A stretch of DNA of 32,000 nucleotides, taken from NCBI RefSeq assembly GCF_000195755.1, contig NC_002937.3:840001-872000 (forward strand), given 5' to 3'. Origin of the DNA: Nitratidesulfovibrio vulgaris str. Hildenborough (GTDB taxonomy: Bacteria; Desulfobacterota; Desulfovibrionia; Desulfovibrionales; Desulfovibrionaceae). Positions 2,727-24,262 of the stretch are shown here, in pieces (position 1 is the stretch's first letter; each line of letters starts with the position of its first letter). The notes below the pieces were generated by a model, which worked only from the letters and a program-made list of their open reading frames with translations, did no database searches and had not been told where the DNA came from. A program made the position numbers and the translations under genes.

Positions 2727-4517
2727 TCACATGCGGAGATTGATCTTCTCCGGCGAAAGCCTGCGTTCAAGGCGGGCGGCGTAGACCGACATCGACCAGC
2801 AGCAGATGAAGTACAGGAAGGCGACGGTGCCGTAGATTTCCATGGGGTAGACCATGAGGCGGTTGTTGATGCCCTGCGCCACGAAGGTGAGTTCAAGCAC
2901 GCCCAGCACGAACGCCAGCGAGGTGTCCTTGAAGATGGCGATGAACTGCCCCACGATGGCGGGAATCATCTGCTTGAGCGCCTGCGGCAGGATGATGCGC
3001 CGCATGGTCTGAACGAAGGTGAGTCCGGTCGAGTACGCCGCCTCGACCTGTCCCGCAGGAATGTTCTGGATGCCAGCCCGCACGATTTCGGCAAGGTAGG
3101 CACCCGTGAACAGTGTCAGGGCGATGGTCGCCGACCAGAACACGTTGAAGAACGTGTTGAACAGCACGGGAATGAAGAAATAGATCCAGAAGATGACGAT
3201 GATAAGCGGGTTGCCGCGTATCAGCTCGATATACAGCAGGCAGGGGATGCGGCAGATGCGGTTGTCTGATGTGCGGCCGATGCCCACGACGAGACCGATG
3301 AAGAAACTCACGCTGATGGCGATGACCGCCATGAGCAGCGAATAGGCAAGGCCGCCAAGCCCCATGAAGAGTTCATCGGACTGCCCGTTGGGGAAGTGCC
3401 ATATGAGCAGCGTACGCAGGTTGTCGGCGATGACGCCCCAGTTGAAGTTGTAGAGTCCCCGCGCCGTGACGAAGAGAAGCCCGCCCAGCGCGAGGATGAA
3501 TGCTCCCTTGCACAGAAGGCTGGCACCCTTGCCCGCCATCTGCATGGCGACACGCATGGTCGCCATGGCGGGTGAATAGGTCGCGCTCGTCGCTGCGCGG
3601 CGTCTGCGGCGCAGGGCGCGTCCGATGGGGCGCACGAACACGCGCCGGATGAGGCTGACGGGCAGCAGCACGGCGTCCACGAACATGACGGATAGCGACC
3701 GCTTGGGAGCGGTGTCGAGACGCATCTTGCCGTTGACGCCGTTGAGGATGAACGAGATGAGCAGCGACAGCGAGAGATAGAGGACGGTGGCGGCGGATGT
3801 CGCCTCGAAACCCTTGAAGGTGAGCGATTCGACCTGTTGCGACTGCCATGTGAGTTCGGCCACACCCACGACCATGGCCAGCGACGAGTTCTTCATGTTG
3901 TTGAGGAACTCGCTGCCCAGCGGCGGGATGATGGCCCTGAAGGCCATGGGCAGGATGATGGTGCGCAGCACCTGCACGTAGTTGAGCCCCGACGAGTAGG
4001 CGGCTTCAAGCAGCCCCTTCGGGATGGACTGGAGACCGGCGCGGATGACTTCCGCCATGAACGCGCTGGTGTACACCGAAAGCCCGATGGTGGCGCACCA
4101 GAATTCGAAGTTGCCGGTGAAGAGCAGTTCGCGGATGTTTTCCGGGAGTATGGCCGGAAAGGCGAAATACCAGAAGAACAGCTGCACCAGCAGCGGCGTG
4201 TTGCGGAAGAACTCCACGACGGCGGTGGCGGTGAGGCGCAGCGGTGCAAAGAGCGACAGGCGCGCTATGCCGAGAACGGTGCCAAGGCCGAGGGCCAGTG
4301 CGGAACTGATGAGCGAGATACGGACCGTGACACCAAGCCCCTTGAGAATCTCGAGACCGAGATGCGTACCGTAGGTGGTGTTCCGGGTGAAGAGGATATC
4401 CCACTGGAACTGGTAGCCGAAATCGAAGACCCAGCCCCAGTAGTAGACGGCGAGCAGGGTGATGGAACACAGTACGAGGTACTGTACCCATGTCTTGTCC
4501 AGCCAGTATCGGATCAT
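2727..4517 (-). CDS. amino-acid ABC transporter permease, two fused His/Glu/Gln/Arg-opine family permease domains
   Basis: There are two tandem permease modules, each with an EAA loop (LEAAYSSGLNYVQVLRTIILP and VEAAYSTGLTFVQTMRRIILP), joined by an Arg-rich linker (RALRRRRRAATSA). I chose the ATG at 4517. The ORF-track TTG at 4559 lies inside a 12-bp hairpin stem and remains an alternative start. Confidence 0.88.
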   Translation of the reverse strand: MIRYWLDKTWVQYLVLCSITLLAVYYWGWVFDFGYQFQWDILFTRNTTYGTHLGLEILKGLGVTVRISLISSALALGLGTVLGIARLSLFAPLRLTATAVVEFFRNTPLLVQLFFWYFAFPAILPENIRELLFTGNFEFWCATIGLSVYTSAFMAEVIRAGLQSIPKGLLEAAYSSGLNYVQVLRTIILPMAFRAIIPPLGSEFLNNMKNSSLAMVVGVAELTWQSQQVESLTFKGFEATSAATVLYLSLSLLISFILNGVNGKMRLDTAPKRSLSVMFVDAVLLPVSLIRRVFVRPIGRALRRRRRAATSATYSPAMATMRVAMQMAGKGASLLCKGAFILALGGLLFVTARGLYNFNWGVIADNLRTLLIWHFPNGQSDELFMGLGGLAYSLLMAVIAISVSFFIGLVVGIGRTSDNRICRIPCLLYIELIRGNPLIIVIFWIYFFIPVLFNTFFNVFWSATIALTLFTGAYLAEIVRAGIQNIPAGQVEAAYSTGLTFVQTMRRIILPQALKQMIPAIVGQFIAIFKDTSLAFVLGVLELTFVAQGINNRLMVYPMEIYGTVAFLYFICCWSMSVYAARLERRLSPEKINLRM

Positions 4518-17126: not shown

Positions 17127-17657
17127 ATGAACAGACTCTTCAATCTGGTACTGGCTGCGGCCCTGCTGCTGTCATTGGCGGGGTGCGCCGTGTATTCCGT
17201 GCCGCATGACGAGCGCAGTGTCGGCACCATCGTGGATGACAGCGTCATCGTCTCGGACATCAAGGCCGACCTCGTCGGCATGGACGGCAGTGACGGTCTG
17301 GCGACCAAGGTCTATAGCTTCGGCGGGCGCGTCTACCTCGTGGGTGAGCCCAGCGTCTCTTTCCGCGACAAGGCCGTTCGCGCCGCGCGGCAGGTCAAGG
17401 GGGTACGCTCCGTGACGCCGCACTGGTTCGCGCCGGGAACGGGGCGTACCATGGATGACACGGTGGTCGCTACGCGCGTGCGTACCAATCTCATCGCCGA
17501 AAAGGCCCTCAGTTCGACGCAGATAGAACTGGAGGTATACGGTGGCCATGTGGTGCTGATGGGCATGGTGCGGGCCGCTGCCGACGTGGACCGGGCAGTG
17601 CGGGTGACCCGCGCCACGCAGGGTGTCCGTGGCGTGTCGTCATACCTCATCCCCTAG
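17127..17657 (+). CDS. BON-domain lipoprotein (OsmY/DolP-like)
   Basis: A lipobox signal peptide (MNRLFNLVLAAALLLSLAGC) is followed by two BON-like repeats (DDSVIVSDIKADL..., DDTVVATRVRTNL...VVLMGMV). There is a GGGAG SD. Confidence 0.88.
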   Translation: MNRLFNLVLAAALLLSLAGCAVYSVPHDERSVGTIVDDSVIVSDIKADLVGMDGSDGLATKVYSFGGRVYLVGEPSVSFRDKAVRAARQVKGVRSVTPHWFAPGTGRTMDDTVVATRVRTNLIAEKALSSTQIELEVYGGHVVLMGMVRAAADVDRAVRVTRATQGVRGVSSYLIP

Positions 17658-20907: not shown

Positions 20908-20941
20908 CTCCGGTCATCCTCTCGGTGGAGGATGACCGGAG
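20908..20941 (-). terminator. 14-bp perfect hairpin downstream of the TauE gene (no U-tract)
   Basis: CTCCGGTCATCCTC-TCGGTG-GAGGATGACCGGAG, located 42 nt after the stop at 20983. Confidence 0.45.
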
Positions 20942-20982: not shown

Positions 20983-21933
20983 TCAGAAGAAATAGCCGGC
21001 GACGTAGCGTGTCGCCGTGGTGGCGAGCACGACAGCGAGCATCCACTTGATGAGGCGCGCAGGCACATGCTTCTGGCACCGTGCGCCAAGATACATGCCG
21101 CACATCCCCCCGAGGCCGAGCATGAGGCCGAGCATCCAGTCGGGGGATACAGAGAGGGCCGGATAGAACGGGGCGATGCCCATGTAGAACAGGACGCCTG
21201 CGATGGATGTGACGAAGGTGCCCATGAGTGCCGCCCCGGCTACGGTATGCACCGGAAGCCCGAAGACGGAGATGAGGAACGGGGCGATGATGGCGCCGCC
21301 GCCAATCCCGTACGTGCCGCCTATCATGCCCACCACGAGGCTGAGGATGAACGTGCCCTGCACCGGGAAGGTATGGGGTTCACCATAGAATTCGTATTCG
21401 ACGGTGCGCCATGTGCGACGGACGACACGGGTCGTGGGCAGGCTTTCGGGGGCGACGCCCAGCGCCTCGGCCTGGGCGCGGTGGCGGGCGGCAAGTTCGG
21501 CGAATCGTTCGTCAGCACGTGCCTTGCCATTGCGTGCGGGGCGCAGCAGGTCGCGTACCATGCGGAAACCGATGTACAGCAGTACCAGCCCCACGAAGAG
21601 CTTGAAGTCGCGGGCATCGGGAAGCCACCTCACCCGGAGGAAGGCGCCCACGAGTACACCGGGCAGTGTGCCCGCGACGACCACCCATACGAGAGGCCAG
21701 ACCATGCGTCCTTCGCGGATGTAGCGGGCGACACCGCTAGGGATGGCGACGATATTGTAGAACTGGTTCGTGGCGCTCACCGAGGGGGCGGTGTAGCCAA
21801 GCACGGACATCTGGAAGGGCAGGAGCAGAAACGCTCCGGAGATGCCTCCCATGGAGGCGAAGAACGATACGACGAAGGCGACACAGACGGGAAGCAGGGG
21901 ATTGGCTTCGATGCCGGCGGTGGGAAAGTACAT
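20983..21933 (-). CDS. TauE/SafE family anion (sulfite/sulfonate-type) exporter
   Basis: 316 aa from the ATG at 21933, with a GGAGG SD. It is a polytopic membrane protein with the duplicated 4-TM TauE pattern (FFASMGGISGAFLLLP ... VVGMIGGTYGIGGGAIIAPFL). Confidence 0.83.
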   Translation of the reverse strand: MYFPTAGIEANPLLPVCVAFVVSFFASMGGISGAFLLLPFQMSVLGYTAPSVSATNQFYNIVAIPSGVARYIREGRMVWPLVWVVVAGTLPGVLVGAFLRVRWLPDARDFKLFVGLVLLYIGFRMVRDLLRPARNGKARADERFAELAARHRAQAEALGVAPESLPTTRVVRRTWRTVEYEFYGEPHTFPVQGTFILSLVVGMIGGTYGIGGGAIIAPFLISVFGLPVHTVAGAALMGTFVTSIAGVLFYMGIAPFYPALSVSPDWMLGLMLGLGGMCGMYLGARCQKHVPARLIKWMLAVVLATTATRYVAGYFF

Positions 21934-21942
21934 GGGCACCTC

Positions 21943-22038
21943 CACGATTATTTGAGGCACGAAAATATCATGTATCGTGTCAGTGAATCTAGCGTACAAG
22001 CCCGAACTTGTCACGAGGTTTCCGCGCCCTGTATCATG
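21943..22038. promoter_or_regulatory. repeated TATCRTG / TGTATCRTG boxes in the divergent TauE / TOBE-regulator intergenic region
   Basis: TATCATG is at 21966-21972, TATCGTG at 21973-21979, and TATCATG at 22032-22038. The last two share the 9-mer TGTATCRTG. An inverted partial copy, CACGAT, is at 21943-21948. Confidence 0.4.
22008..22037 (+). promoter_or_regulatory. sigma70-like promoter TTGTCA-N18-TATCAT for the recombinase-fold/TOBE gene
   Basis: The -35 is at 22008-22013 and the -10 at 22032-22037 with TG immediately upstream. The -10 coincides with one TGTATCATG box. Confidence 0.4.
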
Positions 22039-22087
22039 CCGCCAACGTCTTTGCCGCCACACGGTTCATCGGAATAACGGAGATTTC

Positions 22088-23158
22088 ATGGAAGGTTCCC
22101 TCGAAACGCTTTTTGCCGGCGTCGCCTCAAGAGCCAATCCGGCAGGCATGCTCACCATTCCGGACGAGGTGCGTTGCCTCGATACCAACGACCTCGAAAA
22201 GCTCGAGTCCGCGTTCAGGGCATGGGTCGCCAAGGGACGAGGCGCAGGAGTCACGTTGGCACGCAGGCGTATTCTCGCTCTTTTCCTTCTCCTGCGGCAT
22301 ACGGGGGCACGTCTGGGAGAAGCCTCGGGTCTGGAGGGGCGGTCGCTTGTGCTTGAGAAGGGGCTGGTGAGGCTCGGCACGCCACCTCGCGATGTGCTCG
22401 TGGCGGAGACTGTGCTGGCAGAGATAGTGGGACTGGTCACCACGGGCGGAGGGCGTGAGTCGCCCGTGCTCCCGGAGTATCCCTTCGCGGTCGACCCGGG
22501 GCATGTGCGTCGCAAGTTCTACGCGTGCGCAGAGGCTGCGGGACTCGGGCGTGAGATGGGGTCACCATCGGTCTTGCGGCGTTCGCGGGCTGTGGAGTTG
22601 CTGCGGGGGGGGGTGCCTCTCCCCGCCGTCCAGCGGCTTCTGGGGCATGGCAATGCGGAACTCACCGCCGCCTATGTCGCCGTGCCGGATGACGCCATGC
22701 GTCGTATGGTGGGGGATGCCCTCGACAGGGAGCAGCGCAGAAGCAGTGCCCGCAACGCCTTCTTCGGCAGGGTAGAGGACGTCCGTATCGGGGATGTGCA
22801 GGCTTCAGTGCGTCTGCAGACACCGACCGGGCTCGAAGTGCTCGCCATCATCACCAATGACAGTCTCGAGGCCCTCGGTCTCGCACGGGGTGCCTATGCC
22901 CTCGCCGAGGTGAAGGCACCGTGGGTCGTACTGCAACGCGGTGAACACCCGCGCTCCAGTGCGGGCAACGTCTATCCGGGAGAGGTCGTCCGTGTCCGCA
23001 AGGGGGCTGTCTCGGCTGAGGTCATCGTGAGGCTCGATGCTGGAACGGAGGTCTGTGCCGTCCTCGCCGCTGACACTCTGGCGACGCTTGAACTGTGCGA
23101 CGGGGCTCATGTCTGGGTCGTGATCAATGCCCTCTCTGTCATCCTCAATGCCGTATAG
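22088..23158 (+). CDS. tyrosine-recombinase-fold (XerD-like) domain fused to two Mop/TOBE domains; TunR-like oxyanion-responsive regulator candidate
   Basis: 356 aa from the ATG at 22088, with a GGAG SD. Recombinase catalytic-domain boxes are present (LLLRHTGARLGEA; LLGHGNAELTAAYV), followed by two TOBE repeats (SSARNAFFGRVEDVRIGDVQASVRL.. and AGNVYPGEVVRVRKGAVSAEVIV..). Confidence 0.85.
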   Translation: MEGSLETLFAGVASRANPAGMLTIPDEVRCLDTNDLEKLESAFRAWVAKGRGAGVTLARRRILALFLLLRHTGARLGEASGLEGRSLVLEKGLVRLGTPPRDVLVAETVLAEIVGLVTTGGGRESPVLPEYPFAVDPGHVRRKFYACAEAAGLGREMGSPSVLRRSRAVELLRGGVPLPAVQRLLGHGNAELTAAYVAVPDDAMRRMVGDALDREQRRSSARNAFFGRVEDVRIGDVQASVRLQTPTGLEVLAIITNDSLEALGLARGAYALAEVKAPWVVLQRGEHPRSSAGNVYPGEVVRVRKGAVSAEVIVRLDAGTEVCAVLAADTLATLELCDGAHVWVVINALSVILNAV

Positions 23159-23399: not shown

Positions 23400-23747
23400 T
23401 CATTCGTGTCCGAGTTCCTTGCGCAGCCAGGCCTTGATCTCGGGCGTCGGTTCGAAAATTCCCTTCAGGTCACCGTATTCGTTGAGGAAGCTGTTCGCGA
23501 GTTGCTCGGGAAGGGCCACCGTTGCAAGTTCCTCGGCATGTTCCGAGTTGCGCCTCACAAGGCGTACTACGGGCCAGCCTGCCCATGTATCGACCACGAA
23601 GTAGGTGGATACGTCATCCTTCGAGCGCACAGGCGGATACTCCGCATGCCAGTCGTTGTTGCCCCATTCCAGATACATGGTAACCGCATGTTCAGGGGAA
23701 AGGTTCCAGTCTATATGGTGTCCGCTGAATGCCTTGAGGTCGTTCAT
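23400..23747 (-). CDS. hypothetical protein (115 aa, Trp/acidic-rich)
   Basis: The ATG at 23747 (MNDLKAFSGHHIDWNL) has a GGAGAG SD. Codon usage looks coding. I recognise no family. Confidence 0.65.
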   Translation of the reverse strand: MNDLKAFSGHHIDWNLSPEHAVTMYLEWGNNDWHAEYPPVRSKDDVSTYFVVDTWAGWPVVRLVRRNSEHAEELATVALPEQLANSFLNEYGDLKGIFEPTPEIKAWLRKELGHE

Positions 23748-23854
23748 GGTCTCTCCTCGTAGTTTGAAGGGACGGGCCGGACTGCCACTTCCGGCCCGTG
23801 GGTAGGCCCTTGCTTGTGAAGGAGTGCATGCCTGAGGAAGCATCACTTGAGTCA

Positions 23855-23882
23855 ACAATAACTATTACTGATATGGTGTCAA
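23855..23882 (-). promoter_or_regulatory. sigma70-like promoter TTGACA-N16-TATTGT for the 115-aa hypothetical gene
   Basis: The reverse complement gives a perfect -35 (23877-23882) and a -10 TATTGT (23855-23860), predicting a ~100-nt leader containing the hairpin GGGCCGGA..TCCGGCCC (23774-23797). Confidence 0.4.
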
Positions 23883-24022: not shown

Positions 24023-24262
24023 ATGATGAAACCCGAAGAGTTCGCCCAGCGTTTCATACAAACCGCTGAACAGATGGGCCATGTGCTCACACCGGGAGGG
24101 AACGTCATCTGCGATGGCGGCAAGAACATCTCGCCCGGCAAGGTGCAGGTCCTCTACAAGCGCTACGGCGAAGGATGCGTAGGCTGCGCATCCAAAGAGT
24201 TCCAGAACGATGCGCGCGGGTTGAAGCTTTTTCGTAGCATAGCGGAACGCGCCCTCGGGTAG
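24023..24262 (+). CDS. small hypothetical protein (79 aa, three Cys)
   Basis: ATGATG start with a GGGAGAG SD. It lies in an otherwise empty 640-nt interval. I recognise no family. Confidence 0.55.
   Translation: MMKPEEFAQRFIQTAEQMGHVLTPGGNVICDGGKNISPGKVQVLYKRYGEGCVGCASKEFQNDARGLKLFRSIAERALG

Follow-up and report, generated by a model that had tools for sequence, protein, structure and literature searches.

A predicted TunR-family regulator divergently paired with a TauE/TSUP-family permease gene in Nitratidesulfovibrio vulgaris Hildenborough

Introduction

Molybdate and tungstate are toxic sulfate analogues for sulfate-reducing bacteria as well as essential cofactor metals, and molybdate is used industrially to suppress these organisms. 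The closest described regulators reportedly form a family that was named TunR by Kazakov and colleagues in 2013. The mod-linked DVU0179 of Nitratidesulfovibrio (Desulfovibrio) vulgaris Hildenborough, the characterised TunR of this organism, is said to bind a 30-bp motif and to activate modA and modBC in a tungstate-sensitive manner, and 40 members of the family were reportedly sorted into activators of modABC and repressors of TSUP-family transporter genes. Here, another regulator of the same organism, presumably a paralogue of DVU0179, is described. It is encoded at 22088..23158 (+) of a 32,000-nt stretch (positions 840,001 to 872,000 of NC_002937.3; hereafter the window), and a gene for a TauE/TSUP-family permease, tauE, diverges from it at 20983..21933 (-). 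We lean, with about even confidence, towards the reading that this protein would be a TunR-family repressor of tauE, which an oxyanion releases, and that TauE would export molybdate or tungstate. A first-pass annotation of the window had read the pair as a possible uncharacterised paralogous circuit. The protein does appear to be a paralogue distinct from DVU0179, but its kind is not a new one: the regulator type and its pairing with TSUP genes have reportedly already been described, and the locus lies in the organism in which the TunR family was defined. The remaining value is narrow, namely a paralogue in a genetically tractable model organism, a precisely located predicted operator and two opposite models of its action.

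In D. vulgaris and D. desulfuricans, modA and modBC are preceded by an inverted repeat, CGGTCACG-N14-CGTGACCG (Rodionov et al., 2004; PMC545781). A chimeric gene joining PF00589 to a MOP domain (integrase+MOP) lies in the D. vulgaris mod cluster, and the site of ModE is ATCGnTATATA-N6-TATATAnCGAT (PMC545781).

Domain architecture of the regulator

The regulator consists of a recombinase-type half followed by a ModE-like sensor half. Pfam places Phage_integrase (PF00589, E 5e-10) on residues 140-199 and finds two TOBE stretches (PF03459, E 2e-24), while NCBIfam adds Mop (TIGR00638, 1e-27), so that the fusion of a recombinase-like N-terminus with two TOBE/Mop domains, as read in the first-pass annotation, is borne out by significant matches to both Pfam families. 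XerA/XerC/XerD catalytic-domain matches in NCBIfam are far under their cut-offs. The closest sequences in the PDB are ModG (1h9j, E 3.5e-19) and ModE (2e-13) for the sensor half and XerA (5hxy) and XerD (1a0p/5dcf) for the recombinase-type half. An AlphaFold2 (AF2) model built on 109 homologues, with a mean predicted local distance difference test (pLDDT) score of 83, was compared by Foldseek; it matches ModG with a template modelling (TM) score of 0.92 and the dimop domain of ModE with bound molybdate or tungstate with a TM score of 0.9, and for its first half the matches are to XerA, XerH, XerD and integrases of phages or transposons. Pfam, NCBIfam, the PDB sequence search, the AF2 model and Foldseek all yield the same two-domain architecture. 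The recombinase-catalytic-type fold, the putative DNA-binding domain, occupies residues ~27-214 (22166..22729, +) according to the PDB sequence matches and Foldseek, beginning at about residue 27 in the model, and the di-Mop domain of two TOBE units, of the molybdate/tungstate-binding type by its ModG and ModE sequence and fold matches, occupies residues 218-354 (22739..23149, +). No N-terminal core-binding domain is found in the regulator by Pfam or in the AF2 model. The fused family has about 100 representatives at E <= 1e-30 (50% clustering).

The coding sequence starts with ATG at 22088 and encodes 356 amino acids plus a stop. By exact-sequence look-up it is AAS95251.1, whose record is titled 'Molybdenum-pterin binding domain protein/site-specific recombinase, phage integrase family'. 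AtpD of the window was found in the same way (AAS95255.1, ATPB_NITV2); with atpD as DVU0775, accession arithmetic makes the regulator presumably DVU0771 and TauE presumably DVU0770. Homologues of 348-375 amino acids begin at the same Met, and a ribosome binding site (RBS), GGAG, read from the sequence at 22079..22082 (+), is kept in the relatives L090, L091 and L003. The JGI name, 'molybdate transport system regulatory protein', is a label for function and not for family, because the match to the ModE equivalog of NCBIfam comes from the C-terminal half alone (profile 115-260 of 263; 80 bits vs a cut-off of 369), without the winged helix-turn-helix of the ModE type. In L003, a relative at 63% identity, the corresponding gene (P0004, 6001..7374) is called as 457 amino acids and the match of the window protein falls in two pieces, which points to an insertion, or to an error in the gene call, in or close to the DNA-binding domain.

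Loss of catalytic constraint

Active tyrosine recombinases carry the complete catalytic set R-K-H-R-H/W-Y and act on paired recombination sites or flanking repeats; the set is incomplete in the regulator, and such pairs or repeats are lacking at its locus. The motifs lie where the first-pass annotation had read them: TGARLGE at residues 72-78 (Arg-I, R75), SPSVLRRSRA at 159-168, LLGH with H187 and AAYV with Y196. Within SPSVLRRSRA the usual HxLRH is degenerate, with S161 at His-I, R164 at Arg-II and R165 at the subsequent His position. In an alignment of 109 regulator-family sequences, Arg-I is R in 89 and K in 20, and the β-hairpin Lys, which is T98 in the window protein, is K in 72. The His-I column contains E (60), D (18), S (16), N (13) or T (2), and His in none. 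Arg-II never varies, 107 sequences retain the later His (H187), and the Tyr nucleophile (Y in 93) is replaced in 16, by F in 12 and by W, H, L and V in one each. The basic residues that are invariant in the family are R59, R61, R70, R101, R141, R142, K143, R164 and R167. Such a pattern fits a fold that is retained for DNA binding. Judging from these columns, the regulator is not under selection as a recombinase and its catalytic constraint has been lost.

It is scarcely credible, then, that the regulator is a still-active, molybdate-regulated site-specific recombinase with the 28-bp inverted repeat described below as its recombination site. The window protein has R75, R164, H187 and Y196, and the palindromic 28-bp site resembles a Xer core site; but a core-binding domain and the β-hairpin Lys are absent, His-I is Ser here and never His in the relatives, and the Tyr is replaced in 16 of the 109. 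Each locus, moreover, has at most one site, with neither a second copy nor flanking repeats, and the half-sites are 14 bp apart instead of 6-8, with weak symmetry within the spacer.

The surroundings of the locus also argue against this recombinase, as they do against a mobile-element integrase, which the first-pass annotation had already dismissed on finding no att-like repeats, tRNA or phage genes nearby. A tRNA scan and an Rfam scan of the window gave no match, no flanking att-like repeats were found around the regulator in the window, and the PHROG matches of the window are solely weak integrase ones for the regulator and a weak one, phrog_18885 of unknown function, for TauE. Housekeeping genes neighbour the pair (pyridoxal-kinase-like, MurI, aminotransferase and ATP synthase F1 genes), and relatives at 87%, 68% and 63% identity preserve the order pyridoxal-kinase-like gene, tauE, regulator gene, two small ORFs (open reading frames) and atpC, the contig of the 68% relative stopping at tauE. 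The two small ORFs, at 23403..23858 (-) and 24023..24262 (+), have no Pfam or PHROG match; they are syntenic in L003, L090 and L091, where products of 115 and 78-79 amino acids are called.

Pairing of the regulator with transporter genes

The regulator gene and tauE diverge from an intergenic gap of 154 bp (21934..22087), which agrees with the first-pass annotation. For the comparison of loci one genome per species was used, giving at least 80 loci in Desulfovibrionales, Desulfobacterales, Desulfobulbales and Syntrophobacterales (Desulfobacterota) and in Nitrospirota (Thermodesulfovibrionia); the 84 regulator loci counted below are the 80 listed minus one duplicate, plus the window and a few fetched by other routes. 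Among the matches listed, a TauE 50-75% identical to that of the window lies immediately upstream and divergent in 45 of the 84 loci, and in 19 a permease of the MFS_MOT1 family (PF16983, E 1e-50) stands in its place. Three loci (L018, L030 and L046) have MOT1 and then TauE on one strand under a single operator; in L020, where the order is identical but the MOT1 homologue is more distant, the arrangement is probably the same. The loci that face MOT1, about a quarter of the related loci, include L016, L017, L035, L040, L045, L047, L051, L062 and others. In a neighbour-joining tree, TauE-linked and MOT1-linked regulators are interleaved, and the partners therefore appear to have been swapped repeatedly. 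In the reverse approach from TauE-clade genes, the regulator is alongside in three of four sampled genomes, and the sole TauE-clade gene without an adjacent regulator (L085) has no operator either. Other genes nearby in relatives encode TupA-like binding proteins, ABC ATPases, ChrA and an amino-acid-kinase-family protein, which we read as molybdenum-storage-like. On this evidence from gene neighbourhoods, the pairing of regulator and TauE is real, old and two-way across two phyla.

In a Solidesulfovibrio-type clade of the regulator (L038, L043, L044, L049, L075, L080 and L088), the operator is absent and no transporter gene adjoins the regulator gene; the targets of this clade therefore presumably lie elsewhere. 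The genes around it are a Usp gene, an endoribonuclease L-PSP-like gene and a porin-like one.

Operator and promoters

The intergenic region contains a predicted operator, AGGCACG-N14-CGTGTCA with an AT-rich spacer (AGGCACGAAAATATCATGTATCGTGTCA), at 21955..21982, the half-sites of which lie at 21955..21961 and 21976..21982. The search used a pair of TGWCACG half-sites with spacers of 12-16 permitted. In 43 of 43 TauE-linked intergenic regions the best match has a spacer of exactly 14, with scores of 11-14 of 14, while shuffled regions reached a score >=12 in 10 of 2150 trials. Among the matches listed, the 28-bp inverted repeat T[GA]ACACG-N14-CGTGT[CT]A occurs in nearly all regulator loci and, at the chosen threshold, 70 of 82 sources contain the operator. 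Scans of entire loci, up to 13 kb in length, gave no more than one site per locus, always on the upstream side of the regulator gene and beside the start of TauE or MOT1. The consensus of 68 distinct sites is A-n-T[GA]ACACGA-(AT-rich, central TATA)-TCGTGT[CT]A-n-T, and in some relatives (L001 and L084) the operator takes the exact GTCACG/CGTGAC form.

Of the matches in the window, the site at 21955..21982 alone has an AT-rich spacer and alone is intergenic. Other matches to CACG-N14-CGTG, or to ACACG-N14-CGTGT with one mismatch, at 3550, 17458/17459, 17614/17615, 21334 and 26079, were rejected because their spacers are G+C-rich, they lie inside ORFs taken as coding and their number is near chance expectation. 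Two of the CACG-N14-CGTG matches, 17459..17480 and 17615..17636, are 156 bp apart within a BON-domain gene (17127..17657); with their G+C-rich spacers they are probably due to chance. A dif-like 11-6-11 reading of the operator was also discarded, as the symmetry is found at positions 1-8 and in the central TATA and is weak (0.37-0.54) at positions 9-12.

A consensus scan of the gap gave two promoter sites vs 0.1 expected. The predicted sigma-70-type promoter of tauE (21986..22014, -) has a -35 hexamer GTGACA at 22014..22009, a 17-nt spacer and a -10 hexamer TAGATT at 21991..21986; that of the regulator (22008..22037, +) consists of TTGTCA at 22008..22013, an 18-nt spacer and TATCAT at 22032..22037, scores 10/12 and keeps both hexamers in L090. 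A footprint alignment with the relatives at 87%, 68% and 63% shows conserved islands at the half-sites, the -10-like and -35-like hexamers and both RBSs. The predicted -10 of tauE stops 3 nt ahead of the operator, which therefore covers the transcription start expected near 21979 and about the first 25 nt of the mRNA. Among the 43 related intergenic regions, the best promoter on the tauE strand has its -10 ending -8..+1 nt from the operator edge in about two-thirds of cases. Relative to the predicted tauE promoter, this is the classical position of a repressor. The operator is located ~60-90 nt upstream of the regulator's own predicted promoter, and autorepression is therefore not implied. The -35 hexamers of the two predicted promoters (TTGTCA on the plus strand, GTGACA on the minus strand) overlap back to back at 22008..22014, and polymerases at the two promoters may contend for these 7 bp.

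Together with the two-way adjacency, this conserved operator on the predicted tauE promoter upholds the tie between the regulator and the divergent permease gene that had been suggested in the first-pass annotation. Because the operator has the CACG-N14-CGTG architecture published in 2004 for the mod genes of D. vulgaris, the locus can be assigned in silico to the TunR family. It has the features of that family: an N-terminus like the XerC/XerD catalytic domain without a core-binding domain, a ModE-like tandem Mop/TOBE part with intact anion residues, and an inverted-repeat operator of ~30 bp predicted beside a Mo/W-related transporter gene. The domain and fold matches likewise support the first-pass recognition of a TunR-type protein, in which a recombinase-fold module is joined to a di-Mop sensor.

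Sensor domain and likely ligand

In the established structures of ModE, the oxyanion is contacted by the motifs SARN, T..S and KAPW. The regulator has them at residues 220-223, T256/S259 and 276-279, respectively, and in an alignment they match E. coli ModE residue by residue. SARN, T256/S259 and KAP 276-278 are invariant in all 109 family sequences, and W279 is found in 108 of them. Because these ModE-type anion-binding residues are invariant and because a MOT1-type permease is the alternative partner in relatives, molybdate or tungstate is, as far as sequence comparison can tell, a much more probable ligand than sulfite or selenate. The genomic context of the permease likewise points to molybdate or tungstate rather than to sulfite or a sulfonate.

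The Pfam title of PF01925, the family of the permease, is 'sulfite exporter TauE/SafE', TSUP proteins are mostly tied to sulfur anions (PMC5840216), and the host is a sulfate reducer, so that a circuit for sulfur-anion handling could be imagined, in which both the sensor ligand and the permease cargo would be another oxyanion such as sulfite, thiosulfate, selenate or sulfate. This is improbable in view of the invariance of every residue of the ModE type that contacts molybdate or tungstate, of the nearest folds, namely ModG and the ModE dimop domain in its molybdate- and tungstate-bound structures, and of the operator, which is of the D. vulgaris mod-gene type. The partners in relatives point the same way: they are MOT1, TupA-like, ChrA and molybdenum-storage-like, with no sulfur genes among them.

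The TauE/TSUP permease

The permease gene (20983..21933, -) encodes 316 amino acids plus a stop; exact-sequence look-up names it AAS95250.1, WP_010938071.1 and UniRef100_Q72E09. The protein has both features of the TSUP/TauE-SafE family, TC 2.A.102: it matches PF01925 with E 3e-43 and 148.5 bits vs a cut-off of 32.6, and its AF2 model (pLDDT 82, predicted TM score 0.81) is interpreted as eight transmembrane helices in a 4+4 repeat, the two halves lying around a central insert. The assignment of the divergent gene to TauE in the first-pass annotation thus stands. When the model was compared with the PDB by Foldseek, no significant match was obtained; the top TM score was that of BacA (6fmt; query TM score 0.49, target TM score 0.57, E 0.15). 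Conservation in the clade is high, with 61-95% identity in the top 120 matches and a mean column identity of 74% over 36 TunR-linked sequences. The insert of ~60 amino acids (residues ~131-190, window 21364..21543) between the four-helix halves is conserved in the TunR-linked clade, includes the invariant Y180, F182, Y183 and E185 (YEFYGE), falls outside the coverage of the Pfam profile and is modelled as a helix followed by a three-stranded sheet.

An RBS of tauE, GGAGG, is read at 21939..21943 (-) and is kept in relatives. The ATG at 21933 is supported as the start by homologues of 310-323 amino acids with an invariant first Met. The annotation of the same protein in strain DP4 (ABM29216.1, 343 amino acids) seems, by length arithmetic, to begin at the GTG at 22012..22014 (-), inside the predicted -35. 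Beyond the gene, 42 nt past the stop, a hairpin with a perfect stem of 14 bp and a 6-nt loop (20908..20941, -; inverted repeat I6, 100% complementary) is a possible terminator without a U-tract. Identification with the highly conserved TSUP 'clade B', proposed to be a candidate sulfate carrier (Marietou, 2018), was dropped, the member of that clade in this strain being DVU2958 and not the window gene.

Sign of regulation and direction of transport

According to the mechanism towards which we lean, the 356-residue TunR-family transcription factor would form a dimer held by its ModE-like di-Mop domains, and its two catalytically degenerate recombinase-type domains would read both CACG half-sites of the 28-bp operator at 21955..21982. 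Bound directly downstream of the tauE -10 box, the protein would block transcription of tauE. Molybdate or tungstate at the di-Mop interface would alter DNA binding and free the promoter from the repressor, so that the TauE/TSUP permease would be made at high molybdate or tungstate and the dianion would leave the cell. Export is favoured by the toxicity of both anions to sulfate reducers, by the characterised TauE/SafE proteins, which export sulfite or sulfoacetate, and by energetics, as export of a dianion is easy, downhill efflux requiring no coupling ion. Tungstate is also said to lower, not to raise, the activating function of the paralogue DVU0179. The efflux by TauE that had been proposed in the first pass is still a guess and unproven.

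Several points weigh against this release-and-export mechanism. ModE, by analogy, binds DNA when it is loaded with molybdate. We know of no direct experiment on the window paralogue (presumably DVU0771), and the locus tags DVU0770 and DVU0771 have no mention in the searched literature, where accordingly no experiment on the protein or the site was found. In a random barcode transposon sequencing (RB-TnSeq) study of D. vulgaris, other genes are highlighted under molybdate stress, and DVU0770 and DVU0771 are absent from the study text and two supplements. The promoter calls are predictions from a consensus scan, and the left half-site of the window operator, AGGCACG, is weaker than most (12/14). 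MOT1 lies in an apparent operon with TauE in L018, L030, L046 and probably L020, and the characterised members of the MOT1 family bring molybdate into the cytosol (Tomatsu, 2007, as cited in PMC5840216). The regulator-TauE pair is mentioned neither in a molybdate-inhibition paper nor in a Caldarchaeales paper.

Some of these points fit an opposite, ModE-like logic, in which the oxyanion-loaded regulator would bind the operator and close tauE; TauE would serve as a secondary route by which molybdate or tungstate enters the cell, and ample metal would shut it. The regulator shares its di-Mop domain and binding residues with ModE, whose DNA binding occurs only with molybdate, and MOT1-type permeases, importers where characterised, are the alternative target of the operator and stand head-to-tail with TauE in the loci just named. 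The same RB-TnSeq text and supplements give no molybdate-sensitivity phenotype for DVU0770. The TSUP family itself includes uptake carriers, TsaS and the CysZ-type sulfate carrier of C. glutamicum (PMC5840216). The arguments for export given above, that is, the behaviour of DVU0179, the characterised exporters and the ease of efflux, speak against uptake, which we hold to be doubtful but well worth considering.

The highly conserved clade of insert-bearing TauE proteins that accompanies TunR-type regulators might be a dedicated molybdate/tungstate carrier, interchangeable in function with MOT1-type carriers, and the two TunR paralogues of D. vulgaris might divide control of ABC uptake and of this carrier via related yet distinct half-sites, GTCACG and ACACG/GGCACG. 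We put this forward tentatively, with somewhat less than even confidence. If this is true, a dedicated Mo/W carrier would extend the TSUP family to a new class of substrates. The identity and direction of a permease for these anions would explain part of the tolerance of sulfate reducers.

Comparison with known systems

The window regulator is similar to the TunR of the same organism, DVU0179, in its fusion of a XerC/D-like part with a ModE-like di-Mop part and in the CACG-N14-CGTG class of its operator. It differs in that it adjoins a TSUP gene and not modABC, in that its half-site prefers ACACG/GGCACG and not GTCACG, and in that its site is on the predicted promoter, in the repressor position, whereas that of DVU0179 is upstream, in the activator position. 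ModE of E. coli and ModG of A. vinelandii, both of which take part in molybdate/tungstate homeostasis, share the tandem Mop domains with the same SARN, T..S and KAPW residues; however, ModE reads DNA by an N-terminal winged helix-turn-helix, which is absent from the window regulator and replaced by the recombinase-type fold. With XerA, XerD and XerH the regulator has in common the catalytic-domain fold with the Arg-I, Arg-II and LGH motifs, but it is without the core-binding domain, the full catalytic set and the pair of recombination sites, and it adds a C-terminal sensor. In Desulfovibrio, TaoR/TupR governs W/Mo genes in a tungstate-dependent way (Rajeev et al., 2019, as cited in PMC12327845 and PMC11980592); as described there, its architecture, HTH_17 joined to a periplasmic-binding-protein-like domain, is unrelated to that of the window regulator. 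As to the permease, TauE of Cupriavidus necator, SafE and the CysZ-type carriers likewise belong to PF01925 and have the 4+4 layout of transmembrane helices, while the clade of the window permease is distinguished from them by the ~60-residue central insert with YEFYGE. The MOT1 molybdate carriers are of a different family, and in relatives they hold the same regulated position as TauE does in the window.

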